Below are positions 36,949 to 59,663 of a stretch of DNA of 64,000 nt, piece by piece. Origin of the DNA: Nitrospirota bacterium (GTDB taxonomy: Bacteria > Nitrospirota > UBA9217); contig CAVWHO010000022.1 in the NCBI GenBank assembly GCA_963754875.1, positions 128,001 to 192,000 on the forward strand. The letters run 5' to 3'. The position numbers and the translations under genes were made by a program. Numbering within the stretch: the stretch's first letter is position 1; every line of letters starts with the position of its first letter. The notes beneath the pieces are model-generated. The model was not told the origin of the DNA, searched no databases, and worked only from the letters and a program-made list of their open reading frames with translations.

Positions 36949-37893
36949 TCATCCGGCACTATTGATCCCGTTGTTATAATGGTCCGGCCCGGGATGGATT
37001 TTATCGATAAGATCACGGAAAAAGATCCTGTCCTGTTCAACTTCCGTTTGAATATACCCCAACTGCTTCAGTACGGGCATGAACTTCATGGTCGCAGCGA
37101 TATAGCCCTCGGTGAGCTTCGAGCAGTATTTCGGCGAAACCCTGAGCGTGTCCAGGACAAAGTCCTCATCGACAATGCTGACAAAATCAGCGATCACCCG
37201 GGCCGCCTTCGCAGGCTCCCTTCTGATGAATGCCGTGGCCTCCTCATGAAGGAGAAGAAACTTTTCCACCCGCTCTCGTTCCCGCTCTAAAAATCCGCTC
37301 TCTGCAACGATCCCGTAACTCGGATTGTTCGGCCAGAGTTTTGACGAGGGGTACAGCACCTTACCGTTGGCAAAGCGATTGATCGCTATGGCAAGGGCGG
37401 GCGTTCCTATGGCAGCAGCGACTTCATTGTTGACCACGGCCTCAGTCACGAGGTCTGCCCAGGGAAAGTTCACGATCTCGATCTCGCGCGTGAGGCCCTG
37501 CTGCTCGATACAGTCTTTCAGAATGACGTCGTGAATGGAACCCTTGCCCGGCACGCCGATCTTGCGTCCCCGGAACTGCTCCAGAACCGTACCCAGGTCA
37601 AGAGCTTCGGGGAAAGCTTTCCACCGGGCTTTGCCAGCCATGACCGTGCCTTCCACGTGCCCGCCTGCCACGCAGACCACCTTGATGCCCTGGCTTATGC
37701 CGATGATTGCGGGAGGCAGCCCGATGTAGGCCATATCCAGTTCGCCGTGTTGAAAGGCTTTCATGATGGCCGGACCGGTGCCCATGAGCTTCCATTCGAC
37801 CTCGGCTCCCAACCGCGCGTCAACGGTCCGCTGGGCCATCAACAACACTGCAGTGTGATAGAACGTGGAAAGATGTCCGATCCTGATTCTCAT
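36949..37893 (-). CDS. SsuA/NrtA/NMT1-like substrate-binding-fold protein without a signal peptide
   Basis: GPAIMKAF..GELDMAYIGLPPAI, KIGVPGKGSIHDV; N-terminus begins directly with the first strand. Confidence 0.8.
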   Translation of the reverse strand: MRIRIGHLSTFYHTAVLLMAQRTVDARLGAEVEWKLMGTGPAIMKAFQHGELDMAYIGLPPAIIGISQGIKVVCVAGGHVEGTVMAGKARWKAFPEALDLGTVLEQFRGRKIGVPGKGSIHDVILKDCIEQQGLTREIEIVNFPWADLVTEAVVNNEVAAAIGTPALAIAINRFANGKVLYPSSKLWPNNPSYGIVAESGFLERERERVEKFLLLHEEATAFIRREPAKAARVIADFVSIVDEDFVLDTLRVSPKYCSKLTEGYIAATMKFMPVLKQLGYIQTEVEQDRIFFRDLIDKIHPGPDHYNNGINSAG

Positions 37894-44770: not shown

Positions 44771-45640
44771 TTACTCCAGCGTCCGCCTTATTTCCTCTGC
44801 ATCAAGTCCCTGACCGATGATCACAATCCTGCTGTCCTGGATGTCCTTTTCAAAGGGAACGCTTTCCATTTTCCCGTACACGATATCGAATCGATAAGGC
44901 CCTTGCTCCGTCCGGACAAGGGCCTTTGCTCTCACCACGGTCCCGTATTTCCCTTGAGCCAGATCTCCCAGCCCTGTCGTAAGGACAGCCAGGTCATTGA
45001 TCCTCTGCGGCCTGATGGTCATTGTACCAAAATGAAGATGCCCATGGCCAACGCCCTTCCCCCGTGCACCAGCAGACACCTCCGGCAGGGGTTTCTGAAT
45101 CTCCGCGTTTACTGTGCGAAACAAAACAGCGTGCGGGTTCATGGATTCGATATGATTGATTGTTGCAACGATGGCCGCCTCAGGTGCCAGGTCCGTCTTG
45201 TTTACCAGAACCACATCTGCAAGAGAAACCTGGTCCTCGAAGAAGCTCCCGTACATGCCCGATTCGAGGAGCTCGACAAACTCCACGGCGTCGATGATGT
45301 TGACAACAGTTGCGGCCCTGATACCCGAACTTTCAAGCGCTTCGAGCACTCCCGAAGGTGACGCCACACCGCTCGGTTCGATCACGAGGTGCTCAGGTGC
45401 GAATTGACGGATGATCCTCTCGATCGTCGTGATGAGGTCAAACTTGAGTGTGCAGCATACGCAGCCGCTCGGGAGCTCCACAGATTCGATGCCGCTTGCG
45501 GTAAAGATTTCTCCGTCGATCCCGGCAGCACCGAAATCATTCACCAGAACCACGGTCTTTTCTGATCCATGCTTCACGAAACCCCTGATGAACGTTGTTT
45601 TTCCTGCACCCAAAAGCCCGCATACAACCGTTACTTTCAT
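44771..45640 (-). CDS. COG0523/CobW-family G3E metallochaperone GTPase
   Basis: GLLGAGKTT, GCVCC, EPSG, NKTD, short His patch. Confidence 0.9.
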   Translation of the reverse strand: MKVTVVCGLLGAGKTTFIRGFVKHGSEKTVVLVNDFGAAGIDGEIFTASGIESVELPSGCVCCTLKFDLITTIERIIRQFAPEHLVIEPSGVASPSGVLEALESSGIRAATVVNIIDAVEFVELLESGMYGSFFEDQVSLADVVLVNKTDLAPEAAIVATINHIESMNPHAVLFRTVNAEIQKPLPEVSAGARGKGVGHGHLHFGTMTIRPQRINDLAVLTTGLGDLAQGKYGTVVRAKALVRTEQGPYRFDIVYGKMESVPFEKDIQDSRIVIIGQGLDAEEIRRTLE

Positions 45641-46141: not shown

Positions 46142-46157
46142 TGGCACTGCAAATGCA
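46142..46157 (+). promoter_or_regulatory. sigma54 (-24/-12) promoter of the methyltransferase cluster
   Basis: TGGCACTGCAAATGCA = TGGCAC, GG-N10-GC. Confidence 0.75.
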
Positions 46158-46172
46158 ACAATACGCACTGTC

Positions 46173-46502
46173 ATGAAAAACATCCTTCTCTGCTCCTCCA
46201 ATCCCATCCTGGTCAAGAGCCTCTACAGTATGCTGAGAGACGAAGGGCATGACGTAGAAACCGTGGAACACCCGGCAGTGGCCGTCCATAAGGTGATGTT
46301 CGGCTTGTTTGATCTTGCCATCCTTGACTCAGAACCTTTTGGTCTTTCCACGGAGGATGCAGTGCAAATCATAAAGACCGTGGAGCCCAACCTGCCGATA
46401 GTATATGTCGGGGGCGGCATGAACGATGGCCCGTCCTTGGCCGTCGACGCGCCGGTTGACCTCGAAGAGCTCAAACGAACTATCCATAGTATCACGGTAT
46501 GA
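46173..46502 (+). CDS. Atypical receiver-domain protein
   Basis: REC fold pattern (FDLAILD, PNLPIV, PVDLEEL) but lacking the N-terminal acidic pair and the conserved Lys. Confidence 0.7.
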   Translation: MKNILLCSSNPILVKSLYSMLRDEGHDVETVEHPAVAVHKVMFGLFDLAILDSEPFGLSTEDAVQIIKTVEPNLPIVYVGGGMNDGPSLAVDAPVDLEELKRTIHSITV

Positions 46503-46572
46503 TCGAACGACGCAAGGCGTGAGACTCTGACGCTTCGTCGGCATGTCTATTCATTTTCGGAGGGGAGATGCT

Positions 46573-47601
46573 ATGAAACCAAAGGAAGTTATGCTTAAGA
46601 CATTCGAGGGGGGAAAGTCCGACAGACTCCCGGTGACCCTGTTCGGCGCGGGAATGTGGAGCATCAAAGGCTGGGGCACGTCGTTTGAGGCGCTTTCAAG
46701 GGACGCGGACAAGATGACTTCCATGCTCGTTGACATGAGCGCCAAGCTCCAGTGCGACATCGTGTATCCCGGGTCGGGGTACAATAACTTCCATGCCTCG
46801 GCACTCGGCGGCAAGATAAAATTTCGCGAAGTCGGCGCGCCGGACCTGGAGAACCATTTCGTGTCCACGGAAGAGGACCTTGCAAAACTCAACCTCGCGA
46901 ACCTCGATGCCGATGAGACCATCAATACCGTGAAAAAGGCGTTGCGCCAAACGAAGGCAAAGATCGGTGACACCTATGTGGTGACCATGACCGCCTGGGG
47001 GCCCTTCACCCTCGGCGCGAGGCTTGTGGGAGAAGAGACCATGATGAAGGCCACGTTCAAGAAACCAGCCTTTGTCGAGAAGGTCGTAGACTTCGCTACG
47101 AATCTCCTGATCCATCTCTACGAACCGATTGTCGCAGACAAAACGCTCGAGGTGATCAGCCTCGCGGACCCCACGGCATCGGGCGACCTCATTTCCAGAA
47201 AGCAATTCGAAAAGTTCGCCGTACCCTATCTGAAAAAATTTACCGATTGGGCAAAATCCAAAGGCGTGCATACGCTGGTCCACATCTGCGGAAATACGAC
47301 CGACCGGCTGGACCTGTTCCCGCTGACCGGGGCCTCCTGCATCAGCCTGGACCACAAGACGGACATGGCAAAGGCGAAGGAAACGCTCCACGGCAAGATG
47401 TGCTTCGGCGGGAACGTGGACCCCGTGAAGATCATGCTGAACGGCACGGTGCAGGACGTGGAGAATGCCTGCAAGGACGTGATCAAGACTGCGGGCACGG
47501 ACGGGGGATTCGTGCTCATGCCGGGCTGCGACATCCCGCCGACCGTTCCCTACGACAACATCAAGAAGTTCATCCAGGTGGCGCACGAGTGGAAAATGTA
47601 A
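46573..47601 (+). CDS. URO-D family MtaA/CmuA-type corrinoid methyltransferase 1
   Basis: GPFT, ADPTASGDLIS, Zn ligands HICG and PGCD, GNVDP. Confidence 0.88.
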   Translation: MKPKEVMLKTFEGGKSDRLPVTLFGAGMWSIKGWGTSFEALSRDADKMTSMLVDMSAKLQCDIVYPGSGYNNFHASALGGKIKFREVGAPDLENHFVSTEEDLAKLNLANLDADETINTVKKALRQTKAKIGDTYVVTMTAWGPFTLGARLVGEETMMKATFKKPAFVEKVVDFATNLLIHLYEPIVADKTLEVISLADPTASGDLISRKQFEKFAVPYLKKFTDWAKSKGVHTLVHICGNTTDRLDLFPLTGASCISLDHKTDMAKAKETLHGKMCFGGNVDPVKIMLNGTVQDVENACKDVIKTAGTDGGFVLMPGCDIPPTVPYDNIKKFIQVAHEWKM

Positions 47602-47711
47602 ACGACAGCATCGGCAACCACGGGTCGAGGTCGCCTGTGGTTAATTGCTTTTTCATCACTTCACAAAAAAGGAGGTGAAACTGCTCAATTCTCAAAAAAG
47701 GAGGTCGATGA

Positions 47712-48230
47712 ATGGGTATTTTGGACGAGTTGAAGAAACTGTTTTCCGGAGCACAGAGTGCATCCGGGCATAAGGAGGAAGTAAAAATGGCTGACAAGAA
47801 AATGTCGTTGGAAGAAGTAAATGAGTACATGAAGAAGCAGTGCGGCTTCGTACCGCGCATGTTCCAGATCATCAACACCGTGACGCCGGAGCCGGGCAGG
47901 ACGTTCGCCGATTTTTATGCGAGCATCTTCGCTGACGGAGCCCTTTCCCGCAAGATAAAAGAGCTGATGTTCATGTCCGGCGGTGTGGCCTACTGCTCGC
48001 CGCGGTGCATCATCCACGTGATCCCGGCCATCAATGCCGGCGCGACCACGGGCGAGATCTTCGAAGCAGCTTCGGTCGGCATGATCCTCGGGGGCTTTGT
48101 GCCCGGCGGACCCGGCATCCCCTATGCCTTCGAGTATGCCCTCAAGTGCCTCGACATCGAAGCGAAGTTCCGCAAGGGCGAGAAGTGGGAGTACCTGCCT
48201 CAGCCCAAGTTCGATCATGGTGTATTTTAA
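47712..48230 (+). CDS. Carboxymuconolactone decarboxylase/AhpD-family protein
   Basis: DGALSRKIKELM, CSPRC..H, AINAGAT..EI.EA. Confidence 0.82.
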   Translation: MGILDELKKLFSGAQSASGHKEEVKMADKKMSLEEVNEYMKKQCGFVPRMFQIINTVTPEPGRTFADFYASIFADGALSRKIKELMFMSGGVAYCSPRCIIHVIPAINAGATTGEIFEAASVGMILGGFVPGGPGIPYAFEYALKCLDIEAKFRKGEKWEYLPQPKFDHGVF

Positions 48231-48241
48231 GTGTACTTCGA

Positions 48242-48273
48242 CGGGGGAGCGTTTCGAAGGCTCCCCCGTTTTT
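48242..48273 (+). terminator. Intrinsic terminator within the cluster
   Basis: CGGGGGAGC...GCTCCCCCG followed by a T tract. Confidence 0.75.
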
Positions 48274-48345
48274 CGCACTCATACGATTATCATAAGAAAA
48301 GCCGCTCTCTATAGATGTTGAATATTACTTCCGAATAAAAAGGGG

Positions 48346-49299
48346 ATGGGGATGTTTCGATTTAAAAAAGACCAACAGGTATTTACTCTCGGCAACATGA
48401 AAGTGGGCGGCCAGCCCGGAGAAAATCCGCCGCTCCTGATCGCGTCTATGTTTCACAATAAGGACCGGATCGTCACGGACCGCAAAGGCAATTTCGACCG
48501 TAAGAAGGCCACGGAGATGATCAGGACCCAGGAAGCGCTGTCCGCCTCCACGGGGATTCCGGCCATGGTCGCCATGGTAGCGAACTCGGCGGAAGAGGCC
48601 AAGATCTATATCGATTTTTACCGCGAAACGACAACAATGCCCTTCGGCATCGACATGTGGGTCGCAGAAAAACGGGCTGAGGCAACGGAGTATGTGGCCA
48701 AGCTCGGACTCCAGGACAAGTTCCTGTACAACAGCATCACGCCCTGGGACAAGGACATCAAGGGACAGGTCCGGAAGCTGAAGGACCTCGGCATCAAGCA
48801 TGTCGTGGTGCAGGCCTTCGACGACCAGGACCAGTCGCCTGCGGGCCGTCTTAAGTCGCTCGAGAGCATCCTTTCCCAGGGGGCCGACGGCTTCGAGACC
48901 GTCATCGTTGACACATCGGTCATGAACCTGCCTGCAACGTCGTTCTCCCTCGTCGCGAACAGGTTGATCAAGGAGAAACTCGGCCTGCCCTGCGGCGGCG
49001 CCTACTCGAACGGCACCCACATGTGGAAAGAGGCGAAGACCATCTGGAGCCTCGACGGGTTCAAGGCCATGGATGCTGTGGTCCAGGGCATGGCCTCGGC
49101 CATCTGGAGCGATTTCAATTTTTATGGCCCCATCGTTACGGCGCCGCGGATCTTCCCTGCAGTGGCAGCAGCGCAAGTCCTGCTTTCCACGCTGGTGTAT
49201 GACGAAACGAAGAAAATATCGGACAACGCAAACATACCGATCAAGAAATACTTTTCGGATTTTATAGGAAAACTGACCTCGGGAGCAGCGAGGAAGTAG
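48346..49299 (+). CDS. MtrH-family pterin (THF/H4MPT):corrinoid methyltransferase
   Basis: N-terminus MFRFKKDQQVF...KVGGQPGENP, YNSI, C-terminal YGPI...FPAVA typical of MtrH homologues. Confidence 0.88.
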   Translation: MGMFRFKKDQQVFTLGNMKVGGQPGENPPLLIASMFHNKDRIVTDRKGNFDRKKATEMIRTQEALSASTGIPAMVAMVANSAEEAKIYIDFYRETTTMPFGIDMWVAEKRAEATEYVAKLGLQDKFLYNSITPWDKDIKGQVRKLKDLGIKHVVVQAFDDQDQSPAGRLKSLESILSQGADGFETVIVDTSVMNLPATSFSLVANRLIKEKLGLPCGGAYSNGTHMWKEAKTIWSLDGFKAMDAVVQGMASAIWSDFNFYGPIVTAPRIFPAVAAAQVLLSTLVYDETKKISDNANIPIKKYFSDFIGKLTSGAARK

Positions 49300-49435
49300 A
49301 AAAAGTACAATTTTGACGAACTACGGGGCCGCTTCGCGTCCCTACGGTTATACCATCATTCGTACCACGAATTACCGTGTTTATCTGTGTGTCTCGACAA
49401 AGTCGAGACCCCTGGTTATATTTTAAGGAGGATGA

Positions 49436-50464
49436 ATGACAACATTGAATGCAAGAGAGCGAGTGCTGAAGCTTTTTGCCGGAGAGGAAGTGGACAGGCC
49501 GCCCTGCTTCAGCGGTATGGGCAACGTAACCACGGAGGGGTTGAAATCACTCGGGCAAAAATTTGCCGCAACACACCTCGACGCAAGGATGATGGCCGCT
49601 GCTGCGGTCTCAACATACAAACTGTTCGGCTTCGAGTCCGCGGTCGCGCCTTTTGACCTCTGCATCGAGGCCGAGGCCATGGGGTGCGAGATCAACGTCT
49701 ACGCCCACTCCGAAGACCTCCTGTACCCCACGATCAAAACGAAGCTGATCCACAACGAAGCAGAGATGGACATCGCCCTTCCGTCCGATCTCACGACCCG
49801 CGGCAGGGTGCCGCTTATGGTCGAAGCAATCAAGCTGATGAAGAAGGACGTCGGCAGCGAAACTGCCATCGGCTCCTACGTGCTCGGGCCCTTCACGCTC
49901 GCCGGCCAGGTCATGGAGCTGAACGACCTGCTGAAGCTTTCCTTCAAGAAGCCGGACAAGGTGAGCAAGCTCCTCGACCAGTTGACCGACGTGATCATCC
50001 AGGTCGCAGGACAGTACGAAAAGGCCGGCGTGGACTTCATCACGGTGAGGGAAATGGGAGCAACGTCGGACGTACTCTCCCCGCGCGTGTTCAAGACCCT
50101 CATCCTGCCTTATCTCAAGAAGATCTTCGAGAAGATCACTGTCCCCAGCGTCATCCATATCTGCGGCAAGACGAACGACATCGTCCCCTTTATGGCGGAG
50201 AGCGGGGCGAAGGCCATCAGCGTGGACCAGAAGAACGACGTAGCCGAAACGCGCAAAAAGCTCGGCCCCAAGGCGCTCGTCTTCGGGAACTATGATCCCT
50301 ACAATGTGCTGGTCTCGGGCACGCCGGACCTCATACGCCAGACGATCAAGAAATGCATGGACGACGGCGTCAGCGCGGTCTGGCCGGGGTGCGATATCTG
50401 GCCCACCGTGCCTGCCGAAAATTTCAAGACGATGATGGATGAAGTCAGAAAGTACAGGAGGTAA
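49436..50464 (+). CDS. URO-D family MtaA/CmuA-type corrinoid methyltransferase 2
   Basis: PFDLCIEAEAMGC, GPFTLAG, HICG, PGCD. Confidence 0.88.
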   Translation: MTTLNARERVLKLFAGEEVDRPPCFSGMGNVTTEGLKSLGQKFAATHLDARMMAAAAVSTYKLFGFESAVAPFDLCIEAEAMGCEINVYAHSEDLLYPTIKTKLIHNEAEMDIALPSDLTTRGRVPLMVEAIKLMKKDVGSETAIGSYVLGPFTLAGQVMELNDLLKLSFKKPDKVSKLLDQLTDVIIQVAGQYEKAGVDFITVREMGATSDVLSPRVFKTLILPYLKKIFEKITVPSVIHICGKTNDIVPFMAESGAKAISVDQKNDVAETRKKLGPKALVFGNYDPYNVLVSGTPDLIRQTIKKCMDDGVSAVWPGCDIWPTVPAENFKTMMDEVRKYRR

Positions 50465-50467
50465 TCC

Positions 50468-51160
50468 ATGGCAACGGAAGAGAAGAAAAAAGAGTTGTTG
50501 GAAAAACTGCGGAACGCCGTGATCCAGTACGACGAGGACACGGCAAAAGAGGCTGCCAACGAAGCGCTCGCCGTCGGCTTGGAAGCGAACGACGCCATCT
50601 TCAACGGCCTCGTCTCCGGCATGGTGGAAGTGGGCCGCATGTTCGAGGCCCAGGAGTACTTCGTGCCCGAGCTCTTGATGTGCGCCGACGCGCTCTATGC
50701 GGGCCTGGACATCCTGAAGCCGCATGTGACGCAGCTGGACCTCGGGGTCAAAGGCTCGGTGGTGATCGGGACCGTGGAAGGCGACGTGCACGACATAGGC
50801 AAGAACATCGTGAAGATGATGTTCGACGTTGCCGGCTTTACGGTCTATGACCTGGGCCGCGACGTGCCGCTGGACAAGTTCGTGCAGGAGCAGCTCAGGA
50901 CCGATTCCGACCTGGTCTGCCTTTCGGCCATGATGACCACGACCATGACGGGCATGAAGAAAGTGATCGACGACCTTCGGACCAAGAACCCCAATGTCAA
51001 GATCATGATCGGCGGCGCGCCCGTGTCCCAGGACGTTGCCGAAAAGTACGGGGCCGACGGCTATGCCAAGGACGCTACCAACGCCCTGAAGGACGCCATC
51101 AATATGGTCGCTTCGCTCAAGAAGATGAAAGATGAGGTAGAAGCAAAGAAGGCGAAATGA
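50468..51160 (+). CDS. Methyltransferase cognate corrinoid protein (MtaC/MtbC type)
   Basis: B12 cap domain (EYFVPELL), GTVEGDVHDIGKN, SAMMTTT, GGAP. Confidence 0.95.
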   Translation: MATEEKKKELLEKLRNAVIQYDEDTAKEAANEALAVGLEANDAIFNGLVSGMVEVGRMFEAQEYFVPELLMCADALYAGLDILKPHVTQLDLGVKGSVVIGTVEGDVHDIGKNIVKMMFDVAGFTVYDLGRDVPLDKFVQEQLRTDSDLVCLSAMMTTTMTGMKKVIDDLRTKNPNVKIMIGGAPVSQDVAEKYGADGYAKDATNALKDAINMVASLKKMKDEVEAKKAK

Positions 51161-51816
51161 AGACCGTGCTCAGACACGAGCTGCTGGGGCTGGGCGCCAG
51201 GGTCGTCGGGGTCGCCGGGCTCCGGGGGCATATGAGCGGCGAGCTCGCGCACCTGGACGTTGCCGTGTCTATCGGCCTGGACCGGCGGCTGAACGAGGAC
51301 ACGTTGAGCCACCTCATGAAGCTTCAGAAGCGCGCGGTCCGGTTTCTGAAGACCCGGGGCCATCGCACGCTGGCCATCCCGCCGGACTCGGACCGGATCA
51401 AAGGCACCTTCATTTCGAAGCTCTACTCGCTCTTTAATCACAAAATGGCGGCGACTACCGCGGGGTTGGGATGGATCGGAAAAAACGGACTCCTGATCAG
51501 CCCGGACTACGGCCCCCGGCTTTCTCTGGTCACCGTGCTGACCGACGCGCCGCTCGAACCGGACCGGCCCATGGAACACAGCTTGTGTGGCGATTGTACG
51601 CTCTGCGTGCAGTACTGCCCGTCGCAGGCGATCACCGGAGCGGAGTGGTCGCGCTCCTCGCCCTTTGTGGAACTGGTCCGGCTCGATGCCTGCAGGAGCC
51701 ACAAGGAGACCAAACGGTTGACGGAAGGAAAGCCCAATTGCGGGCTGTGCATCAACATCTGCCCCTATGGAAGACAAGAGACGAATGCGGAGTGCGGAAT
51801 GGAGGGTGCGGAATAA
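51157..51816 (+). CDS. QueG/reductive-dehalogenase-like 2x[4Fe-4S] protein
   Basis: HKMAA..AGLGWIGKNGLLI...GPRL, CGDCTLCVQYCP, CGLCINICP. Confidence 0.8.
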   Translation: MKTVLRHELLGLGARVVGVAGLRGHMSGELAHLDVAVSIGLDRRLNEDTLSHLMKLQKRAVRFLKTRGHRTLAIPPDSDRIKGTFISKLYSLFNHKMAATTAGLGWIGKNGLLISPDYGPRLSLVTVLTDAPLEPDRPMEHSLCGDCTLCVQYCPSQAITGAEWSRSSPFVELVRLDACRSHKETKRLTEGKPNCGLCINICPYGRQETNAECGMEGAE

Positions 51817-51904
51817 CAACCGTCCTTCCCGCAGAGTGCCTCTTGTTTCACCGTGTTCATCCGTGGTTACAATGTTTTGATTCATCTTTATCAGGAGGAA
51901 GTGA

Positions 51905-53887
51905 ATGATTAAGAAACACAAAGTTATATTCCAGCCCTCGGGCAGGCGCGGCGAGATCGAGGACGGTAAGACCATCCTCGAGGCGGCCCAGGCCATGGGC
52001 GTCGACATCGAAGGGCTTTGCGGCAACAAGAAGGTCTGCGGCAAGTGCAAGGTGCGGGTCGAAGAAGGCTACTTCGAGAAGGACAACATCGACTCGGGCA
52101 TGGCCCACCTCTCGCCGATCACCGAAGCGGAGAAAAAGCACATCAAACCCGAGGACGGGCCCGGCATCCGTCTGTCCTGCACGGCAGAGGTCCACGGCGA
52201 CATCAAGGTATTCGTACCCGAGCGGTCGCGTGCGGGCAAGCAGGTGGTGCGCAAGGCCGCCAAAGAGCTCACGATCAAGCTCGACCCGGCCGTGAAAAAA
52301 TATAATGTCGCGCTCGAAAAGCCCTCTTTGCATGATATGACGACCGGAGACTGGGAGCGTGTGCTCAAGTCCCTGGAAGACAACTACGGACTGAAGGGGC
52401 TCACCTTCGATTATCTGGTCCTGAAGGACCTCCAGGACATCCTGCGGAAGGGCGAATGGAATGCGACCGCCACGGTCTGGATGGACAAAGAGATCATCAA
52501 GATGGAGCCGGGGTTCGTTGAACTGAGCTATGGTCTTGCCGTGGACGTCGGGACCACGACCTGCGTAGGCTATCTGACGGACTTGAACACGGGCGCGGTG
52601 GTGAACACCGAGTCCATGATGAATCCCCAGGTGCCCTACGGCGAGGACGTGATGTCGCGCATCACCTACGCTATGAGCAATCCCGGCGTGGGTCTCGATA
52701 CCATGCAGAAGGCGATCATCCAGGGCCTGAACGAGATCATCGAGCGAGTGGTGAGCGAGATCCGGAAGGACGGACCGAACCCGGGCCATGTCATCGACGA
52801 TCTGACGATCGTGTTCAACACGGCCATGCACCACATCTTCCTGGGCCTGAACCCCGAGTATATCGGCCGTTCACCCTTCATTCCCGCGGTGCAGAGCTCG
52901 CTCGATATCAAGGCGCGCGACCTGGGGCTTCGGATCAACCCCGCTTCCTACATCCACGTGCTGCCCATCGAAGCGGGCTTCGTGGGCGCCGACAACGTGG
53001 GCGTGCTGATCGCCGAGGAACCGTACAACCAGGACGAGATGGTCCTGATCATCGACATCGGAACGAACGGCGAACTGCTCATGGGCAACCGGAACAAGGT
53101 CTGCTCCACGTCCTGCGCTACCGGACCTGCCTTCGAAGGCGCCCAGATCAAGTTCGGCATGCGCGCCGCTCCCGGCGCCATCGAGACGGTGGAGATCGAT
53201 CCGGCGACGAAGGAACCGCGGTACAAGGTCATCGGTAAGGCGGACTGGCATACTCATATCGAAAAGGTGAACGCAAAGGGCCTGTGCGGATCAGGCATCA
53301 TCGGCGTTGTCGCCGAGATGTTCAAGGCGGGCGTCATCGACAAGAGCGGAAGGTTCGTCATGGACCTGGGCACCAACCGGGTGCGCAAGGATGCTGACGG
53401 CAAGCCCGAGTATGTCCTTGCCTGGGCGTCGGAGACCTCCATCGGCCAGGACATCACCATCACCCAAGGAGACGTGCGGGCGCTCCAGCTCGCCAAGGGG
53501 GCGCTCTACGCAGGCGCAAAACTGATGATGAAGAGGCTCGGCATTACCAAGCTCGACCGCGTGATCCTGGCAGGCGCTTTCGGAAGCCACATCGACAAGG
53601 TGGCCTCGCTCACGCTCGGCATGTTCCCGGACTGCCCCATCGACATGGTCTACGCCGTGGGCAATGCTGCCGGTGACGGCTCCCGCATGGCCCTTTTGAA
53701 CAGGGACAAGCGTCGCGAAGCGAACGAACGCGCGCGATGGGTGGAGTTCGTCGAGATCGCGACAGACCCGGCGTTTGAAAAAGAATTCATGCAGGCGATG
53801 CATATCCCGCACATGAAGGACAAGTTCCCGAACCTGAAAGCGCTGCTCGAAAAGTCGTCGAAGAGCTTGGTTGAGATAAAGGCATAA
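51905..53887 (+). CDS. ATP-dependent corrinoid reductive activator (RACo/RamA type, ASKHA/DUF4445)
   Basis: N-terminal [2Fe-2S] (CGNKKVCGKC), DVGTTT, DIGTNGE, ATGPAFEG, LAGAFG, GNAAG. Confidence 0.92.
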   Translation: MIKKHKVIFQPSGRRGEIEDGKTILEAAQAMGVDIEGLCGNKKVCGKCKVRVEEGYFEKDNIDSGMAHLSPITEAEKKHIKPEDGPGIRLSCTAEVHGDIKVFVPERSRAGKQVVRKAAKELTIKLDPAVKKYNVALEKPSLHDMTTGDWERVLKSLEDNYGLKGLTFDYLVLKDLQDILRKGEWNATATVWMDKEIIKMEPGFVELSYGLAVDVGTTTCVGYLTDLNTGAVVNTESMMNPQVPYGEDVMSRITYAMSNPGVGLDTMQKAIIQGLNEIIERVVSEIRKDGPNPGHVIDDLTIVFNTAMHHIFLGLNPEYIGRSPFIPAVQSSLDIKARDLGLRINPASYIHVLPIEAGFVGADNVGVLIAEEPYNQDEMVLIIDIGTNGELLMGNRNKVCSTSCATGPAFEGAQIKFGMRAAPGAIETVEIDPATKEPRYKVIGKADWHTHIEKVNAKGLCGSGIIGVVAEMFKAGVIDKSGRFVMDLGTNRVRKDADGKPEYVLAWASETSIGQDITITQGDVRALQLAKGALYAGAKLMMKRLGITKLDRVILAGAFGSHIDKVASLTLGMFPDCPIDMVYAVGNAAGDGSRMALLNRDKRREANERARWVEFVEIATDPAFEKEFMQAMHIPHMKDKFPNLKALLEKSSKSLVEIKA

Positions 53888-54069
53888 AAGAGTACAACAT
53901 CCACCACAGAGACACTCCCTGTGACCTCTGTGGTGCATTGCTATGGTTTGGAATTATCACCGAAGATCTCTCCTTGGTGATAATGGGTTGCAGGGGCAGG
54001 AAGGCTAAGACTTTCCCCGGGCCTTCCTGCCTCTTCTTCCTTGCTCAATGCCAAGAAGGAAAAACGGTT

Positions 54070-54387
54070 ATGACAAAGCTCATCATACACTCAGGGGCAT
54101 GCGGGTATACGGTCACGGTCAAAGCGGAAAAAGGCCAGGGCGGCAAAATAACCATCTCTCTGGAAACCGAATGCGAAATGGTAAAAAAAATGCTCGCTGA
54201 CATCGCTGTCCTTGACCGGTTCGCACCGCTCGCCGGTTTCCTGAGCAATCCGGTGTACCTGTCCGCGGCAAAGCACCTGAAGCACGGGGCCTGTCTTGTG
54301 CCTTCCGGTATCCTGAAGGCTATCGAAGTCGAGGCGGGCCTGAACGTTCCGAAGGACGCGGTGATCGAATTCGGAAAAGAGAGGTAA
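54070..54387 (+). CDS. Small conserved Cys-containing hypothetical protein
   Basis: GACG, TEC, H..C.VPSGILKAIEVEAGL; Shine-Dalgarno AAGGA. Confidence 0.7.
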   Translation: MTKLIIHSGACGYTVTVKAEKGQGGKITISLETECEMVKKMLADIAVLDRFAPLAGFLSNPVYLSAAKHLKHGACLVPSGILKAIEVEAGLNVPKDAVIEFGKER

Positions 54388-54525
54388 GCGAAAAATCCTG
54401 GCTCCTTCGGCTGGTTGTGGATATTGCCGTTCTCCTGGTTATCGCACGCAGGCAGTGGGGATGTTTGCGTATCGGTTATCTCCCCGATATGGTACAATAG
54501 GAAAAAAGCCAGACAACCGGAACGC

Positions 54526-55212
54526 ATGGGAAAACTATTGATACTGACTGCGTATGCAGTGTACGCGGCATTCTGGATACGCCTTTGTGCGCACATACTC
54601 GTTTGGTGGCGGGCCGTACGGCAGAGCACCGGGCCTGCATCCTCTGTCGCTCCCGTGCGCGGGAAGGCATGTGCGCTTGCGGCAGGGGACGTGCTTTTTT
54701 TTGGAAGGCTCTTCATGGTGAATCCCGCACTCTGGCTCGGTGAGTGGGTCTTCCATGCAAGCTTTCTCCTCGTGCTCGCGCGTCATCTTCGTTTTTTTCT
54801 GAACCCGGTCCCTGCGTGGGTATGGTTTCTTCAGACGCCGGGCTTGCTCGCCGGATACATTCTTCCCCTCTCGCTCCTTTACATCCTGGTCATCCGGCTT
54901 CTCACCAAGCAGGAAAAGTATGCATCTCCGGCGAACATGCTTCTTCTCGGCCTGGTCCTCGGCATCAGCACGATCGGTGTGCTTATGCACGCGTTGTTCA
55001 AACCGGATCTCGTCGACGTGAAGCTGTTCATCTTCGGCATCATGAGCTTCTCACCGGCTGTTGTTCCCGGGAGCGTGCTGTTCCTGGTGCACTTCAGCCT
55101 GGTCCTCGTCCTCGTCTCCCTTCTCCCGTCGCACATTTTCACGGCGCCGATCATCATGCTGGAAGCGAGGAAGCGGGAGCAGGCGCTTCACCTGGTGATG
55201 CATGAAAAATAA
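54526..55212 (+). CDS. NarI/HdrE/DsrM-like membrane cytochrome b subunit
   Basis: About five TM helices; His pairs (WVFH...ARHLRFF; LVHF...PSHIF); overlaps the downstream Fe-S gene. Confidence 0.75.
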   Translation: MGKLLILTAYAVYAAFWIRLCAHILVWWRAVRQSTGPASSVAPVRGKACALAAGDVLFFGRLFMVNPALWLGEWVFHASFLLVLARHLRFFLNPVPAWVWFLQTPGLLAGYILPLSLLYILVIRLLTKQEKYASPANMLLLGLVLGISTIGVLMHALFKPDLVDVKLFIFGIMSFSPAVVPGSVLFLVHFSLVLVLVSLLPSHIFTAPIIMLEARKREQALHLVMHEK

Positions 55213-56404
55213 ACGCTCATTCGTCGAAGAACTCTCGCCGCGGCAGATCCTCGAAATCGACGCCTGCACCCAGTGCGGCGAATGCCTCAAACACTGCCCG
55301 GTGCAGGACGTGACCGGCAACCCGACCGTCTCGCCGCCGGAGAAGATCCGTATGTTCCGCGAGTTCATCCGTGCGACCGACGGCCTCAAAGCAAAGCTCT
55401 TCGGCCCCGGCGAGGCAGACCGGAAGATGCTGGAAGACTTCGCCAAGGCGGTCTATGAATGCACGACGTGCGGAGCCTGCGGTCAGAGCTGCACGGTCGG
55501 GATCTTTACCCAACGGCTCTGGCCTGCACTCAGAAAAGAGATGGTGAAGCGCGGCCTGGGGCCCATCGGCGTCCAGGCGAACCTACCGAAGGCGATCATG
55601 AATTCGGGAAATCCCTATGACAAGCCTTCCGCTGACCGTTACAAACCCTGGTTTCCCGAGAACGTAAAGATCGCCGAACGCGCGGACATTGCCTATTACG
55701 CCGGATGTACCGGCGCGTACGAAGCACAGCCCATGGTCAAAGGCGACGTACTCGTCCTCAATGCCATCGGGGAGCCTTTTACCATGCTGTCGCCGGAAGA
55801 CGAGGTGTGCTGCGGTTTTCCGCTCTTCATTACGGGCCAGCACGACGAGCTCAAGGACCTCGTGACACGACTCGTAAACGGATATAAAGCAAAAGGGGTC
55901 AAGGTGCTCGTCTGCTCCTGTCCCTGCTGTGTGAATATCATGTCCCGGGACTGGCCCCTGTTCTATGGCGAAGCGCTTCCGTTCAAAATCCGGCACATCA
56001 CGCAATACGTCTCGGACGCCGTGCAAAAAGGAAAGTTGCGCCTGAACAAGGAGCTGCACGAGTCCGTGATCTATCACGACCCGTGCTATCTTTCCCGTGG
56101 TGTGGGCGTGATTGAGGAGCCGCGCGCAGTGCTCAGGAGCATCCCTGGCATCACGGTCCTCGAGTTCGAGCGGCACGGCTTGAACTCCCGGTGCTGCGGT
56201 TCCGGCGGTGCAGCGAGAAAAGTATTTCATGAAAACGCCATCGCCATGGGCAGGCAGACAATCGACGAGGCTGTGGCGAAAAAAGCGGACCGCTTGATTC
56301 TGAGCTGTCCCGCGTGCTATGCTAAAGTAAACGAAGCAATGAAGGGCCACACGAACCAGATACGGATCACGGACATCATGGAGCTGGTCAGCGGGTTGAT
56401 TTAA
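55202..56404 (+). CDS. HdrD-like heterodisulfide reductase catalytic subunit
   Basis: Two CxxCxxCxxxC motifs plus two CCG domains (GC...CCG...CPCC; HDPC...CCG...CPAC). Confidence 0.85.
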   Translation: MKNKRSFVEELSPRQILEIDACTQCGECLKHCPVQDVTGNPTVSPPEKIRMFREFIRATDGLKAKLFGPGEADRKMLEDFAKAVYECTTCGACGQSCTVGIFTQRLWPALRKEMVKRGLGPIGVQANLPKAIMNSGNPYDKPSADRYKPWFPENVKIAERADIAYYAGCTGAYEAQPMVKGDVLVLNAIGEPFTMLSPEDEVCCGFPLFITGQHDELKDLVTRLVNGYKAKGVKVLVCSCPCCVNIMSRDWPLFYGEALPFKIRHITQYVSDAVQKGKLRLNKELHESVIYHDPCYLSRGVGVIEEPRAVLRSIPGITVLEFERHGLNSRCCGSGGAARKVFHENAIAMGRQTIDEAVAKKADRLILSCPACYAKVNEAMKGHTNQIRITDIMELVSGLI

Positions 56405-56572
56405 GATCGTAACCACTGGAGCTGCGCTCACACGGGGCTTCGCCGCACGGGAAAGCAAATCGGACTTAAGGTTCTTTTATCTTAAAGACTAAGTTTTTTC
56501 TGTGTGCGCGGCAAAACCGCACCCGTGTTCATCTGTGGTTACTAAATCGTTTTGGACGTTAGGTGAGAAATT

Positions 56573-57829
56573 ATGAGCCATTTTTCCATTCAATGCAGGA
56601 ACTGCGGAAAGGTCCTCGAGAACGCGTACTGCGCTTACTGCGAACACTGCAAGGATTCGCTCCTGGTCACGCGCTACAGCGATACCCGGTTTGCTGAAAG
56701 TACGGCAGAGGGCGTCTGGAGATTTAACTGGCTTCCGGTCCACGAGCCGAAGATCTCCCAGCCCGGGCCTGTGGTCTACCGGTCAGAAGGTCTGGCGCGC
56801 GAGGTCGGGCTCGAAAACCTGCATATCGCCTTCAACGGATACTGGCCGGAGAAGGGCGCGTTCCTCGAAACCTGCACGTTTAAGGAGTTCGAGGCCGCGA
56901 TCGTACTCCAGAATGCCCGCGAGAGCGGCATGGAAGGCCTTATCGTTGCGTCGGCAGGGAACACGGCCCGTGCCTTTTCGCACCTCTCCGCAGTCACCGG
57001 CTTCCCGGTCGTGATCGTGGTGCCGCGCATGTGCCTTACCGAAATGTGGTATCTCGAAGACTCTTCTATCGTGCCCACGCTTGCCGTGGGTGACGGCGAC
57101 TATGCGGACTCCATCGACGTTGCCAAGAAGGTCGCCATGGCCGTGGGGTTCCCCTTCGAAGGCGGCGTGAAAAACATCGCAAAGCGCGACGGCCTCGGCA
57201 TCGTCATGCTCGAAGCGGTTTCCAAAATAGGAAAACTTCCTGACCATTACGTACAGGCCGTGGGCAGCGGTACCGGCGCTGTCGGAGGCTGGGAGATGGC
57301 CGAGCGGTTCGTCAAAGACGGACGGTACGGCTCTAAGCTCCCGGTCCTGCACCTCGGACAGAACCTGCCCTTCGCTCCCATGGTCCATGCCTGGGAAAAA
57401 GGCAGCAGGACACTCTTTCCAGAGGACCTGAATCCGGAGCTCATCTCTCGTATAACGACGAAAGTTCTCTCCACTCGCTACCCTGCGTATTCTGTCAAGG
57501 GAGGCGTGTTCGATGCGCTGACCGCGACCAAAGGATCCATGTACGGTATCGAAAACGACGAAGTCTACGCAGCTATGGATGCATTCCACAAAGCAGAGGG
57601 AATAGATATCGTTCCTGCTTCGGGCGTGGCCGTTGCCACACTGAAGGCGGCAGTAAACAAAGGCTCAATCAAGAGCAACGATACGGTCCTGCTGAACATT
57701 ACCGGCGGCGGTGAAACGCGGTTGCGGAAGGACAAAAAAACTTACTTCGTCGTGCCCAAGTTCATTTCCAAGAAGGTGACGGAGAAAGAGATCGAGGAGC
57801 TGCTGTGCCACGTCCTGAAGAAGAGCTGA
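56573..57829 (+). CDS. Cysteate synthase (PLP-dependent, threonine synthase-like)
   Basis: N-terminal CxxC/CxxC, FNGYWPEKGA..TCTFKEFEA, SAGNTARAF, EGGVKNIAKRDGLG, QAVGSGTG, QNLPF.PM, LNITGGG. Confidence 0.88.
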   Translation: MSHFSIQCRNCGKVLENAYCAYCEHCKDSLLVTRYSDTRFAESTAEGVWRFNWLPVHEPKISQPGPVVYRSEGLAREVGLENLHIAFNGYWPEKGAFLETCTFKEFEAAIVLQNARESGMEGLIVASAGNTARAFSHLSAVTGFPVVIVVPRMCLTEMWYLEDSSIVPTLAVGDGDYADSIDVAKKVAMAVGFPFEGGVKNIAKRDGLGIVMLEAVSKIGKLPDHYVQAVGSGTGAVGGWEMAERFVKDGRYGSKLPVLHLGQNLPFAPMVHAWEKGSRTLFPEDLNPELISRITTKVLSTRYPAYSVKGGVFDALTATKGSMYGIENDEVYAAMDAFHKAEGIDIVPASGVAVATLKAAVNKGSIKSNDTVLLNITGGGETRLRKDKKTYFVVPKFISKKVTEKEIEELLCHVLKKS

Positions 57830-58929
57830 TAGCCATACTCAAAAAGCACGGCGTGGACTTCACTGCCACGCTGCCCTGCGAGAAGTTCAAGACTCTTCTC
57901 GAGATGGTCGCTCATGACTTCACCCACGTACCCCTTACGCGGGAAGAGGAAGGCGTCGGCATATGCGCCGGCGCAGCGCTCGCCGGCAAACGGCCGGCAA
58001 TGTTCGTCCAGAGCTCGGGCATCGGAAACATGATCAACGCCCTGCTTTCGCTCACGCAGTTCTACGAACTTCCGCTCGCATTGTTCGTCAGCCGCAGAGG
58101 AATTTACCAGGAAAAAATCGAGGCCCAGTTCCCGATGGGACAGCGCCTTCCGGGGATACTTTCAGGCGCTGGAATTTCCTATTCAGAAATAAACAGCAGC
58201 CAAGATTTCGCTACCGTAGGCAACGAACTGGGGGAAGTTTTTAAGACCAATAAGATTCATGCGTTCCTCCTGAGCCCGGCAGTGTGGGTTGGGTCAGAAT
58301 GCAAAGGAACGAGAACACAGTGTAAAGTGCAGGAAAGAGCTGCGGAAGGAACAATGCGTAAGACCGGTATGCCGGAGTTCACGCGCTACGATGTCATCAG
58401 GATCATCGCACCGTACCTCGAAGGCAAGGCCGTTGTGAGCAATCTCGGCTGGCCGTCAAAAGAGCTCTATGCGCTCAAGCACCTACCTTCAAACTTCTAC
58501 ATGCTTGGGAGCATGGGCATGGCCACGCCTGTCGGACTCGGCATTGCACTGACGTCGCCAAAGGACATTGTCGTGATCGACGGCGACGGCAGCCTGCTCA
58601 TGAATCCCGGCACTCTTGCCACAGCGGCCTATGCCAATCCGAAGAATCTGACGATTATCGCGATCGACAACGGCGCCTACGGGTCAACGGGAAACCAGCC
58701 TACTTTCGCGGCCTCCTGCGTTGATCTGGAACAGGTGGCTGGGGGATTTGGGTTTAGGCACACGTTGAAGGTGTCAACGGAAAAGGAATTAACAGAGGTA
58801 ATGAAGCAGCAGCGGCAGGGTCCCGCCTTTATTCACGTTCTCGCCATTCCGGGAAACAAAGACGTGCCGAACATTCCGGTCCCTCACCTTGAGATTAAAA
58901 AGCAGGTGCAGAAGTTTTTGAAAAGGTAG
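57805..58929 (+). CDS. comDE: Sulfopyruvate decarboxylase, fused ComD-ComE
   Basis: LPCE, TREEEGVGICAGA, QSSGIGNMINAL, NFYMLGSMG, TPP motif DGDGS...DNG.YGSTGNQ; adjacent to cysteate synthase. Confidence 0.88.
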   Translation: MPRPEEELIAILKKHGVDFTATLPCEKFKTLLEMVAHDFTHVPLTREEEGVGICAGAALAGKRPAMFVQSSGIGNMINALLSLTQFYELPLALFVSRRGIYQEKIEAQFPMGQRLPGILSGAGISYSEINSSQDFATVGNELGEVFKTNKIHAFLLSPAVWVGSECKGTRTQCKVQERAAEGTMRKTGMPEFTRYDVIRIIAPYLEGKAVVSNLGWPSKELYALKHLPSNFYMLGSMGMATPVGLGIALTSPKDIVVIDGDGSLLMNPGTLATAAYANPKNLTIIAIDNGAYGSTGNQPTFAASCVDLEQVAGGFGFRHTLKVSTEKELTEVMKQQRQGPAFIHVLAIPGNKDVPNIPVPHLEIKKQVQKFLKR

Positions 58930-59060: not shown

Positions 59061-59663
59061 TTACAACTTCCCGGTCTTCTGATATTCCTGAACATAAAGC
59101 TTGATCGCCCTCAAGATCATCCAGTCCACCGTAACACTATTGTCCTTTGCTATCTGGACCATTGCGTCGATAAGGTCCTTATCGATCGTGGGCATGCCGG
59201 ACGCCTGCGATTGTGGTTGAGCAGCCTCTTCGCTCATACCGAGCTCTGCTCCGGGAGTCCGCTTGAGATATTCCCGCCGAAGAATTTTCTTGAGGCCCTT
59301 GACATCTCCGCTCTCGATTGCCTTTCGCACATCCTCAGGCACTTCCGGCGACATCTGCTCCGCAGCCTTTTGCTCGGAGGACACAGTCTGCTGCTGCTCC
59401 TCCTGTGCAGGAGACGGCGGGGTTGTTTGGCCCCCCATGGGCATCATCCCCGTCATCCCCATCATCATGGATGCCAGGTTCTTCGCATATTCATTGTCCG
59501 GCATTTCCCGCTTCAGAAACTCATCAAGCTTTCCTTCTGCCATGGCCGCGGCCATGCTGTCTGCCGTCAGTCCGCCCTGATCCTCAGATTGTTCCGAAGA
59601 CCTCTTTCTCCCGAATGGCGTGTTCGGCGGCGTTGGAAGCGGTTTTTCTTTTTTCATGGTCAT
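59061..59663 (-). CDS. Hypothetical protein, low-complexity with a possible C-terminal ribbon-helix-helix-like segment
   Basis: 200-aa ORF with Shine-Dalgarno AGGA; C-terminus IDKDLIDAMVQIAKDNSVTVDWMILRAIKLYV. Confidence 0.65.
   Translation of the reverse strand: MTMKKEKPLPTPPNTPFGRKRSSEQSEDQGGLTADSMAAAMAEGKLDEFLKREMPDNEYAKNLASMMMGMTGMMPMGGQTTPPSPAQEEQQQTVSSEQKAAEQMSPEVPEDVRKAIESGDVKGLKKILRREYLKRTPGAELGMSEEAAQPQSQASGMPTIDKDLIDAMVQIAKDNSVTVDWMILRAIKLYVQEYQKTGKL

Follow-up and report, generated by a model that had tools for sequence, protein, structure and literature searches.

The stretch of DNA analyzed here, referred to below as the window, comprises 64,000 nucleotides from a Nitrospirota bacterium of the UBA9217 lineage (assembly GCA_963754875.1, contig CAVWHO010000022.1, positions 128,001 to 192,000). 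Between positions 46,142 and 58,929 it carries an operon in which the genes for a corrinoid methyltransferase module are followed by those for an HdrD-type protein and for the archaeal synthesis of coenzyme M (CoM). The operon is a real, conserved, and probably undescribed system. No description of it was found in the full-text literature searched, with supplements outside the scope of the search; annotation tables of metagenome-assembled genomes could list the genes without comment. In our judgment there is about an even chance that the encoded proteins constitute a soluble methyl-CoM/corrinoid/tetrahydrofolate relay that oxidizes methyl-sulfur compounds via the Wood-Ljungdahl pathway, together with sulfate respiration and without the production of methane.

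Thirteen intact genes, all on the plus strand, occupy positions 46173 to 58929, with intergenic gaps of -25 to 185 bases. The G+C content of the block, 54-60% as compared with a range of 43-60% in the window, is somewhat high but does not mark it as foreign. The promoter and the genes, in their order, are as follows, with occurrences counted in the 40 related loci described further on.

46142..46157, + strand: sigma54 -24/-12 promoter TGGCACTGCAAATGCA, at a conserved position in relatives
46173..46502, + strand: atypical stand-alone receiver domain; Response_reg match weak and below cut-off; in 29/40 loci
46573..47601, + strand: MtaA1, a zinc methyltransferase of the uroporphyrinogen decarboxylase (URO-D) fold, from an uncharacterized clade outside the MtaA/MtbA group in trees
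47712..48230 (the start may be 47787), + strand: CMD/AhpD-fold protein (Pfam CMD)
48346..49299, + strand: soluble MtrH/MtgA-family corrinoid:pterin methyltransferase (NF002142 above cut-off)
49436..50464, + strand: MtaA2, predicted methylcorrinoid:CoM methyltransferase (NF004889 and TIGR01463 above cut-off)
50468..51160, + strand: corrinoid protein with a DxHxxG motif, the sole protein of its type in the host genome
51157..51816, + strand: QueG/reductive-dehalogenase-like 4Fe-4S protein, below the QueG and reductive dehalogenase cut-offs; in 36/40 loci
51905..53887, + strand: RACo, an ATP-dependent corrinoid activator (four RACo/Fer2 Pfam domains)
54070..54387, + strand: DUF6951 small Cys protein (Pfam)
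54526..55212, + strand: DsrM/NarI-like membrane subunit, predicted di-heme cytochrome b (weak DsrM match, invariant His)
55202..56404, + strand: HdrD-type protein with two 4Fe-4S and two intact CCG domains
56573..57829, + strand: cysteate synthase (TIGR03844 above cut-off, 484.7 versus 324.9 bits)
57805..58929, + strand: fused sulfopyruvate decarboxylase ComDE (TIGR03845 and TIGR03846 above cut-off)

An earlier note, made from the sequence of this DNA, had described twelve co-directional genes at this position. The genes it named are all present, intact, and on the same strand; they number 13, which is also the sum of the note's own list. Its cysteate synthase and fused comDE both exceed curated cut-offs, its MtrH-like methyltransferase holds at the family level, and its small Cys protein belongs to DUF6951. 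Other assignments are now narrower. Of the two enzymes it regarded as MtaA/CmuA-type, MtaA2 keeps that designation on the basis of subfamily cut-offs and the tree, whereas MtaA1 loses it. Its RACo/RamA activator is a RACo of the bacterial AcsV type (468 bits versus 112 for RamA). In the proposed HdrD-like and HdrE-like pair, the HdrD assignment is sustained by motifs and a tree, and the HdrE assignment rests on four invariant His residues and gene position, the DsrM match being weak.

Among 301 Nitrospirota genomes, cysteate synthase was observed in 56 and MtaA2 in 60, and all 56 fall within the 60; these genomes are kin, and the co-occurrence counts are not independent events. For synteny, 20-kb regions were taken from 40 of the 55 other positive genomes, picked for long contigs. 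The MtrH, MtaA2, corrinoid protein, and RACo genes adjoin the CoM genes in the window's order in 36 of the 40 loci, and in the other four the module lies elsewhere in the genome (three) or at a contig edge (one). Among the bacterial loci that extend upstream of cysteate synthase by 9.5 kb or more, MtaA2 is present in 35 of 37; in the remaining two, inserts displace MtaA2, and the module is found further upstream on the same contigs. A Hydrothermarchaeales archaeon (locus L070) carries the same gene set in a different order. The earlier note had allowed that the methyltransferase and CoM genes might never be co-located in other genomes; they are, in dozens of Nitrospirota and in this archaeon. 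Genes for folate enzymes also travel with the block, with folD inserted in 6/40 loci and metF leading the operon in several others. These neighbors tie the block to tetrahydrofolate C1 flux and give no direction to it.

Cysteate synthase and ComDE score clearly or narrowly above the cut-offs of their models. For ComDE the alpha portion reaches 184.2 against a cut-off of 147.95 and the beta portion 221.8 against 221.5, and the protein remains below the phosphonopyruvate decarboxylase cut-off (221.3 versus 312.5). In trees, the Nitrospirota cysteate synthase (ultrafast bootstrap (UFBoot) 99) and ComDE (UFBoot 100) group with Hydrothermarchaeota-type sequences; the trees took in 11 archaeal loci only and do not establish the donor.

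One observation on the identity of the thiol comes from Chloroflexota, where an orthologous methyltransferase module adjoins xcb genes, an arrangement new to this analysis. The search used an alignment of MtaA2 with a Chloroflexota sequence in first place, and the best 80 of 471 loci were retained, 34 of which are from Chloroflexota. Within these, xcb genes adjoin orthologous MtaA2, corrinoid protein, RACo, and DUF6951 genes, and often MtaA1, CMD, and MtrH genes, in 12 of the 34 loci; all five xcb genes are present in three (L217, L226, and L228). Cysteate synthase, ComDE, and HdrD occur in none of these 12 loci. In one such genome (G359), XcbA, ComA, and XcbD are above cut-off, XcbE scores 386 versus 450, and only a fragment of XcbC is present, at the edge of the locus. 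The Xcb route has no enzyme in common with that of the window. According to the available part of one account, XcbA makes the CoM thiol, and the route ends in it (PMC9457059).

Because orthologues of the module adjoin this unrelated pathway, CoM itself is very likely the thiol carrier. Altogether four lines bear on this assignment: the xcb swap, the importers, the trees of MtaA2 and HdrD, and the Hydrothermarchaeales gene set with the grouping of cysteate synthase and ComDE. The importers are of the SsuA-family ATP-binding cassette (ABC) type. They lie inside five Nitrospirota loci, where they are 28-33% identical to a binding protein after comDE in a Methanosarcinales locus, and they adjoin the module in five further Chloroflexota loci. 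The earlier proposal that the cell makes CoM is thus strengthened by the xcb swap and by the MtaA2 and HdrD trees, and the phylogenies that it called for place MtaA2 with MtaA/MtbA and HdrD with the HdrD of Methanosarcinales.

Other genes were noted at Chloroflexota loci. Two of them (L183:7259-10477 and L219:12489-15199) bring together genes for rhodanese, a MetE-fold enzyme, OsmC, and CMD or xcb proteins; the MetE-fold protein may resemble epoxyalkane:CoM transferase. In L217:931-2331, L224, and L226, the module comes after a cbb3-type oxidase subunit I-like gene and DsrE, and a cobalamin adenosyltransferase-like gene follows the corrinoid gene.

MtaA2 shows its best match in the Protein Data Bank to M. 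mazei MtaA (E 1.5e-49), and its putative zinc ligands, His 241, Cys 243, and Cys 319, are kept in 36/36 orthologues. In trees, its clade falls together with the MtaA/MtbA of methanogens and two close relatives, with FastTree Shimodaira-Hasegawa (SH) supports of 0.92 and 0.97 and an IQ-TREE UFBoot value of 97, the latter read after correction of a one-node label shift that arose from rerooting. In MtaA1 the corresponding residues, His 237, Cys 239, and Cys 319, are kept in 34/34 orthologues. The His-Cys-Cys set is that of the S/Se-methyltransferases (PMC10418091). MtaA1 is below the cut-offs of all MtaA/CmuA-type models, scoring 149 (cut-off 400) and 160 (cut-off 600) with the MtaA and MtbA equivalogs, and its nearest 50% clusters bear only automatic "uroporphyrinogen decarboxylase" labels. 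It likely acts on an external S-methyl substrate. The MtrH-family gene is present in a single copy in the host genome; its product is under both the MtrH and MtgA equivalog cut-offs, matches MtrH and MtgA structures, and is predicted to use tetrahydrofolate. It is quite likely that MtaA2, the corrinoid protein, and the MtrH-type enzyme link methyl-CoM and methyl-tetrahydrofolate. Note that DUF6951 also adjoins RamA-type activators and MtaA paralogs in two Methanosarcinales loci (L162 and L172).

Two variants of these proteins were encountered. The host genome encodes a stand-alone URO-D protein (C14:92343-93362; L338) that is 31% identical to MtaA1, has an HQCG motif, and has no corrinoid gene nearby. 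A RACo of approximately 1150 residues with an inserted Fe-S/flavin oxidoreductase domain occurs at L186:8100-11639 and also in L252 and L273; such a protein may carry its own electron input.

The HdrD-type protein is 38-40% identical to Methanosarcinales HdrD versus 25% to the host's own DsrK, and in a tree of 32 sequences it is sister to Methanosarcinales HdrD (SH 0.90). The adjacent membrane subunit has no Pfam match, NarI included, and scores 69 bits against a DsrM cut-off of 300. His 77, His 87, His 189, and His 203 are invariant in 28/28 sequences. Methanogen HdrE matched other NarI-like queries better than it did this subunit, which in some loci is replaced by another NarI-like gene. The CMD protein contains invariant Cys 74 and His 77 (numbered from 47787), with one invariant Cys and no conserved Cys pair. 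Orthologues of it adjoin xcb genes and HdrD-like genes, and in one Anaerolineae locus genes for CMD, a Rieske protein, cytochrome b, and an HdrD of 46% identity are found together. From these associations, the CMD protein is likely a thiol/disulfide partner of CoM, and its single invariant Cys is a candidate for the second thiol. In an Anaerolineae region (L184:9995-19728), CMD, OsmC, Rieske, cytochrome b, NarI-like subunit, and HdrD genes stand in a row after an SsuA-type ABC importer.

ComF/HcyBio, the canonical enzyme for the last step of CoM synthesis, was found neither in the host genome, which is 90% complete, nor in any cysteate-synthase-bearing genome searched, and therefore the route is incomplete by known genes. 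PF01837 (ComF/methanogenesis marker 16) is present in 8/301 Nitrospirota and in none of the 56 with cysteate synthase; ComF was also missed in one incomplete Methanoperedens genome. A gene upstream of the operon offers a candidate.

36949..37893, - strand: signal-peptide-less NMT1/SsuA-fold protein of 314 residues, candidate for the last CoM step or for a cytoplasmic CoM sensor

This protein was found in 34/34 operon-bearing genomes of the family and in 1/20 others (35/54 overall), and its gene directly follows comDE in three archaeal loci. By eye, no leader precedes the first strand in 16 aligned orthologues, and a set of His, Cys, Asp, and Glu residues is invariant. The predicted model (mean local distance difference test score, pLDDT, of 89) has TauA, SsuA, and Thi5 as its nearest folds. 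We infer that it is a candidate ComF substitute or, given its place beside a kinase gene, a cytoplasmic CoM sensor.

The host genome (4.3 Mb) encodes Fhs, acetyl-CoA synthase (ACS), the large subunit of the corrinoid Fe-S protein, AcsE, DsrAB, DsrC, and DsrMK, all above cut-off, with DsrD weak; an hdrABC-like set adjoins the Wood-Ljungdahl genes. Its closest cysteate synthase loci are almost all from Nitrospirota. McrA was not found in the 90% of the genome that is represented, although the control was positive in both methanogens. The look at the rest of the genome that the earlier note had recommended thus reveals Wood-Ljungdahl and Dsr genes, and its remark that the window encodes no Mcr can be extended to the genome at that completeness. 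ACS is present in 55/60 operon genomes versus 161/301 overall, and therefore the operon is an accessory of Wood-Ljungdahl lineages. Two further candidates were discarded. Entry of methylamines by way of an MttB-family enzyme was rejected, as no MttB-family match was found in the host genome. The possibility that methyl-CoM leaves through a nitrogenase-like methylthio-alkane reductase was likewise rejected because the four PF00148 matches lie in a single cluster and are, by size and position, nifD, nifK, and a fused nifEN. That nitrogenase-type cluster (C16:241030-246706) is common to 12/14 other members of the genus that were searched.

In the mechanism that we favor, cysteate synthase, an aminotransferase encoded elsewhere, and ComDE would lead to sulfoacetaldehyde, and a non-ComF step, possibly catalyzed by the signal-less NMT1-fold protein, would complete CoM. 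MtaA1, or in some relatives an Mts-like satellite cassette, would take the methyl group from a donor of the methanethiol or dimethyl sulfide type. MtaA2 would exchange the methyl group between the corrinoid and CoM, the MtrH-type enzyme would pass it to tetrahydrofolate, and MetF, FolD, and Fhs would oxidize it there, with RACo holding cobalt as Co(I). The HdrD/cytochrome b pair and the CMD protein would interconvert CoM thiol and CoM disulfide with the quinone pool, and this oxidation of free CoM would pull the uphill methyl transfer. A comparable pull has been modeled for Methanoperedens, in which, according to the accessible part of the report, a membrane HdrD complex oxidizes free CoM with menaquinone (-143 mV to -80 mV; PMC4683180). 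An S-methyl compound is rather more probable than other substrates, and indirect evidence favors methyl sulfides over halomethanes, with Mec and CmuA sequences outside of the comparison.

The satellite cassettes bear on where methyl groups would enter. A second corrinoid cassette was observed in 7/301 Nitrospirota genomes, all of which carry the operon; it is absent from the host genome.

G142:C20, G083:C2, G148:C7, G058, G274:C26, G122:C61, G107:C9 (loci L295-L302, L324-L329): satellite cassettes

The cassette genes encode a kinase, a LuxR regulator, an MtaA2 paralog (50-53%), CobW, a CbbQ/vWA pair, DUF2284, a divergent URO-D enzyme, a corrinoid protein, and RACo, and some cassettes have a CO dehydrogenase gene and DUF1638 beside them. 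In a tree, the URO-D enzyme clusters (UFBoot 94) with a corrinoid-fused methyltransferase of Methanosarcinales, that of L162, which on domain architecture rather than a named record we take to be an Mts enzyme. As described in the available parts of two reports, the corrinoid-fused architecture is that of the methyl-sulfide enzymes MtsD/F/H (10.1101/548461; PMC7374477). Five of the seven cassette genomes were tested, and each has one MtrH, located in the main operon, an arrangement consistent with CoM acting as a common methyl pool. The simplest reading is that the cassettes load CoM and that the enzymes of the main operon then transfer its methyl group to pterin; the second corrinoid protein may also cross-talk with MtrH or AcsE.

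Several points weigh against the oxidative relay. With respect to its enzymes, MtaA2 is under the MtaA and MtbA equivalog cut-offs (257 versus 400 and 192 versus 600), MtaA1 has no characterized close relative, and the reference sequences of the trees are limited, being classed by hidden Markov model cut-off and lacking named MtsA, MtpA, CmuA, Mec, and Mlp sequences. MtpA, a close family member of MtaA2, does not use CoM, as stated in the accessible portion of that study (10.1101/548461). To the incompleteness of the CoM route must be added genomes in which the module and CoM synthesis part company. Two f3 genomes with the module have neither cysteate synthase nor HdrD nearby, and in three deltaproteobacterial module genomes, all incomplete, cysteate synthase and XcbD gave no match, nor did ComA in the two that were searched for it. 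Likewise, 17 of the 34 Chloroflexota loci show neither xcb genes nor an ABC importer in their flanks, many of which are short. Whereas dsrA is present in 31 of the 34 operon genomes of the family, no dsrA match was obtained in the other three. In the host, one corrinoid protein serves three methyltransferases and there is no satellite cassette, so that CoM would be a side pool rather than obligatory. Finally, metF and folD work both ways, and the energetics are adverse. Transfer of a methyl group from methyl-CoM to a pterin costs approximately +30 kJ/mol, and the reverse, from methyl-pterin to CoM, is exergonic by about the same 30 kJ/mol. Transfer from an S-methyl compound to corrinoid is also uphill, approximately +20 kJ/mol for methylmercaptopropionate (MMPA) in the part of the study available (10.1101/548461). 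Given this uphill S-methyl transfer and the fact that no ion-pumping Mtr is shown, operation as a methyl sink would be the easier direction.

The strongest alternative is a reverse flow, in which methyl groups of CO2-derived methyl-tetrahydrofolate would pass by way of CoM to sulfide or another thiol, and methanethiol or dimethyl sulfide would be excreted as an electron or sulfide sink, a flow comparable to the soluble bypass of Mtr that has been proposed for MtsF/CmtA in Methanosarcina. We regard it as unlikely, though not to be taken lightly. Corrinoid to thiol is the favorable direction, the hosts have ACS, and a CO dehydrogenase gene adjoins some satellite cassettes. The oxidative direction is nevertheless modestly favored as the net one, because related clusters begin with or contain solute importers, some loci include an inserted chemoreceptor gene, and the satellite cassettes, each equipped with a sensor and a corrinoid protein of its own, resemble substrate-entry modules. 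Each of these features can be read in other ways. The importers include, in addition to the SsuA-family proteins, sodium:solute symporters, encoded first in the cluster of deltaproteobacterial genomes for which no cysteate synthase was found.

A second alternative keeps CoM as the relay and replaces the substrate with a halomethane (chloromethane or dichloromethane) or methyl selenide. The mec cassette likewise joins MtaA/CmuA-type enzymes, MtrH, a corrinoid protein, and RACo, as given in the available part of its description (10.1101/2021.08.30.458270), folD inserts without metF would suit entry at methylene-tetrahydrofolate, and the His-Cys-Cys set also fits selenium donors (PMC10418091). 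This alternative is nonetheless improbable. In the part of that description available, mec has no close homologues (>35% identity) outside of dechlorinators, and CoM is not mentioned (10.1101/2021.08.30.458270). MtaA1 matches the chloromethane enzyme CdmB at an E value of 1e-4 only, and an operon present in a fifth of the sampled Nitrospirota would seem wide for a halomethane trait.

Slightly less probable still is that cysteate synthase and ComDE make taurine, isethionate, or a sulfonolipid head and that the methyltransferases use another thiol. The lineage-wide failure to find ComF and the resemblance of the linked NMT1-fold protein to taurine/alkanesulfonate binders would fit such a product. 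Against it, the orthologous module is joined elsewhere to xcbA-E, an unrelated route ending in the CoM thiol, and both MtaA2 and HdrD group with CoM-using enzymes.

The weakest alternative, to which we give very little credence, is an anabolic split methionine synthase (methyl-tetrahydrofolate to corrinoid to homocysteine) with the CoM genes as a thiol buffer. MetH and MetE domains occur in four and two of the 54 family genomes, respectively, none of them operon-bearing and the host included among those without; metF often leads the operon; and CoM can be an antioxidant in Methanosarcina, according to the accessible part of one paper (PMC12713407). A housekeeping methionine synthase is unlikely because 16/20 operon-less relatives lack both domains too, and because the host has a separate candidate core methionine synthase of 347 residues (C13:235407-236450; L334) that gave no Pfam or NCBIfam match. 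Core synthases of this kind are tied to Wood-Ljungdahl organisms in the part of the literature account available (PMC7857596).

The oxidative relay can be set beside several known systems. With the methylotrophic Methanosarcinales (MtaA, MtbA, MtsAB, MtsD/F/H, MtpCA, and HdrDE) it has in common the His-Cys-Cys URO-D enzymes, a cognate corrinoid protein, an ATP-dependent activator, DUF6951, and a two-CCG HdrD-type protein, and MtaA2 and HdrD group with theirs. It differs in having a bacterial host in which McrA was not found, Mtr represented by its soluble H subunit alone, a bacterial-type RACo, an MtaA2 in a separate sister clade, an MtaA1 far from all named members, and no identified CoB-like thiol. 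It works like the entry half of methylotrophic methanogenesis with a soluble Mtr substitute but does not belong to that pathway, neither Mcr nor ComF having been found. In Methanosarcina acetivorans (MA3297-MA3299), the phosphoserine route to CoM likewise has cysteate synthase and fused ComDE adjacent and in the same order; in the Nitrospirota lineage the MA3299/ComF-type gene was not found, and the signal-less NMT1-fold protein travels with the pair instead. The Xcb pathway of Xanthobacter autotrophicus is also a bacterial CoM synthesis, and xcb genes flank the orthologous module in Chloroflexota. Unlike the alkene oxidizers, however, the window uses the archaeal route, and the role here would be methyl transfer in anaerobes rather than alkene catabolism.

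The type 1 mlp clusters of anaerobic non-methanogens also contain at least two MtaA-like enzymes, a corrinoid protein, and RACo, with a proposed methyl-S/Se role (PMC10418091). They are defined by having no tetrahydrofolate methylase within 20 kb, and the operon, which holds MtrH, falls outside of that definition; no CoM synthesis genes are reported for them, and the terms "Nitrospir" and "MtrH" are absent from the text (PMC10418091). The mec and cdm cassettes and MtgBCA similarly combine a methyltransferase I, a corrinoid protein, an MtrH-type methyltransferase II, and an activator that deliver to tetrahydrofolate. In the available part of the mec description, compared here by its published gene list, there are no CoM synthesis or Hdr genes (10.1101/2021.08.30.458270). 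As for the others, CdmB is only remotely similar to MtaA1, and the host has no MttB-family enzyme of the MtgBCA kind.

CoM as a methyl carrier has been taken as a mark of methane-cycling archaea, bacterial CoM being known from alkene catabolism by a separate route (PMC10418091 and, in its accessible part, PMC9457059). The operon would place archaeal CoM synthesis and CoM-based methyl transfer in common sediment and groundwater bacteria, about a fifth of the sampled Nitrospirota, with relatives in Chloroflexota, Desulfobacterota, and Hydrothermarchaeota. For Hydrothermarchaeota, the available part of Carr et al. (PMC6775978) reports mtrH and methyltransferases without mcr and suggests an "alternate fate" of methyl-CoM. 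The operon offers testable enzymes for that fate in Mcr-less Hydrothermarchaeota and for the oxidation of methanethiol and dimethyl sulfide by sulfate reducers, and it makes matches to comDE, mtaA, mtrH, and hdrD in metagenomes unsafe markers of methanogens. A more specific proposal is offered tentatively and with less confidence than the relay itself. It is an Mcr-less, methanogen-style methylotrophy in sulfate-reducing Nitrospirota and, with the CoM pathway swapped, in Chloroflexota, in which methyl groups of methanethiol or dimethyl sulfide would be carried on CoM to tetrahydrofolate and then to CO2. The uphill transfer would be pulled by a membrane HdrD complex oxidizing free CoM with quinone, and the NMT1-fold protein would act in the last step of CoM synthesis. 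If it is true, the missing genes of anaerobic bacterial methyl-sulfide oxidation are named, a bacterial competitor diverts methyl sulfides from methane, and the NMT1-fold protein represents a third way of completing CoM.

With respect to regulation, the sigma54 promoter proposed in the earlier note is borne out by its conservation and not by window statistics. Within the window alone, the pattern matches three times versus 2.1 expected, which is not above chance, and therefore conservation in relatives was used as the evidence. Among the relatives, 29 of 34 upstream regions contain a matching site ahead of the first genes, versus 0.29 in base shuffles, the pattern having been drawn up after the window's site was known. 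For most relatives, 385-442 bases separate this site from MtaA1; in those lacking the receiver gene, the distance is 55-179 bases. Scans for sigma70 promoters and terminators gave results at chance level. The neighboring genes are as follows.

38032..40056, + strand: PAS/GAF sensor histidine kinase (Pfam)
40131..41462, + strand: sigma54-dependent response regulator (Pfam Sigma54_activat and receiver)
44771..45640, - strand: CobW/COG0523 metallochaperone GTPase, divergent from the operon (Pfam)
59061..59663, - strand: 200-residue protein of unknown function, convergent on comDE, travels with the operon

The kinase and the sigma54 activator are located 5-8 kb upstream of the operon. A homologous kinase is near the operon in 13/40 loci, some matches being weak and generic, and a homologue of the response regulator in 12/40, with 64-88% identity in 11 of them. 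It is likely that the kinase regulates the operon and that the response regulator activates it. The cobW gene, which adjoins the operon in 16/40 loci, has a separate sigma54-like site (45698-45713). In five relatives, all with cobW, the sites on the reverse strand (-693 to -758) are the divergent cobW promoter. The 200-residue protein adjoins the operon in 23/40 loci. A Pfam/NCBIfam family search with it gave no match, its atlas clusters are of unnamed Nitrospirota proteins, and a weak ribbon-helix-helix similarity is the sole lead to its function.

Variants of the module were also seen further afield. In L291 and L292 (genomes G029 and G036), the module is followed by radical S-adenosylmethionine and S-adenosylmethionine-methyltransferase genes in place of the Hdr and CoM genes. 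A four-gene core of corrinoid protein, RACo, MtrH, and MtaA2, with no CoM genes nearby, occurs in deltaproteobacteria and Dehalococcoidia (L240, L244, L247, L252, L263, L267, and L273).

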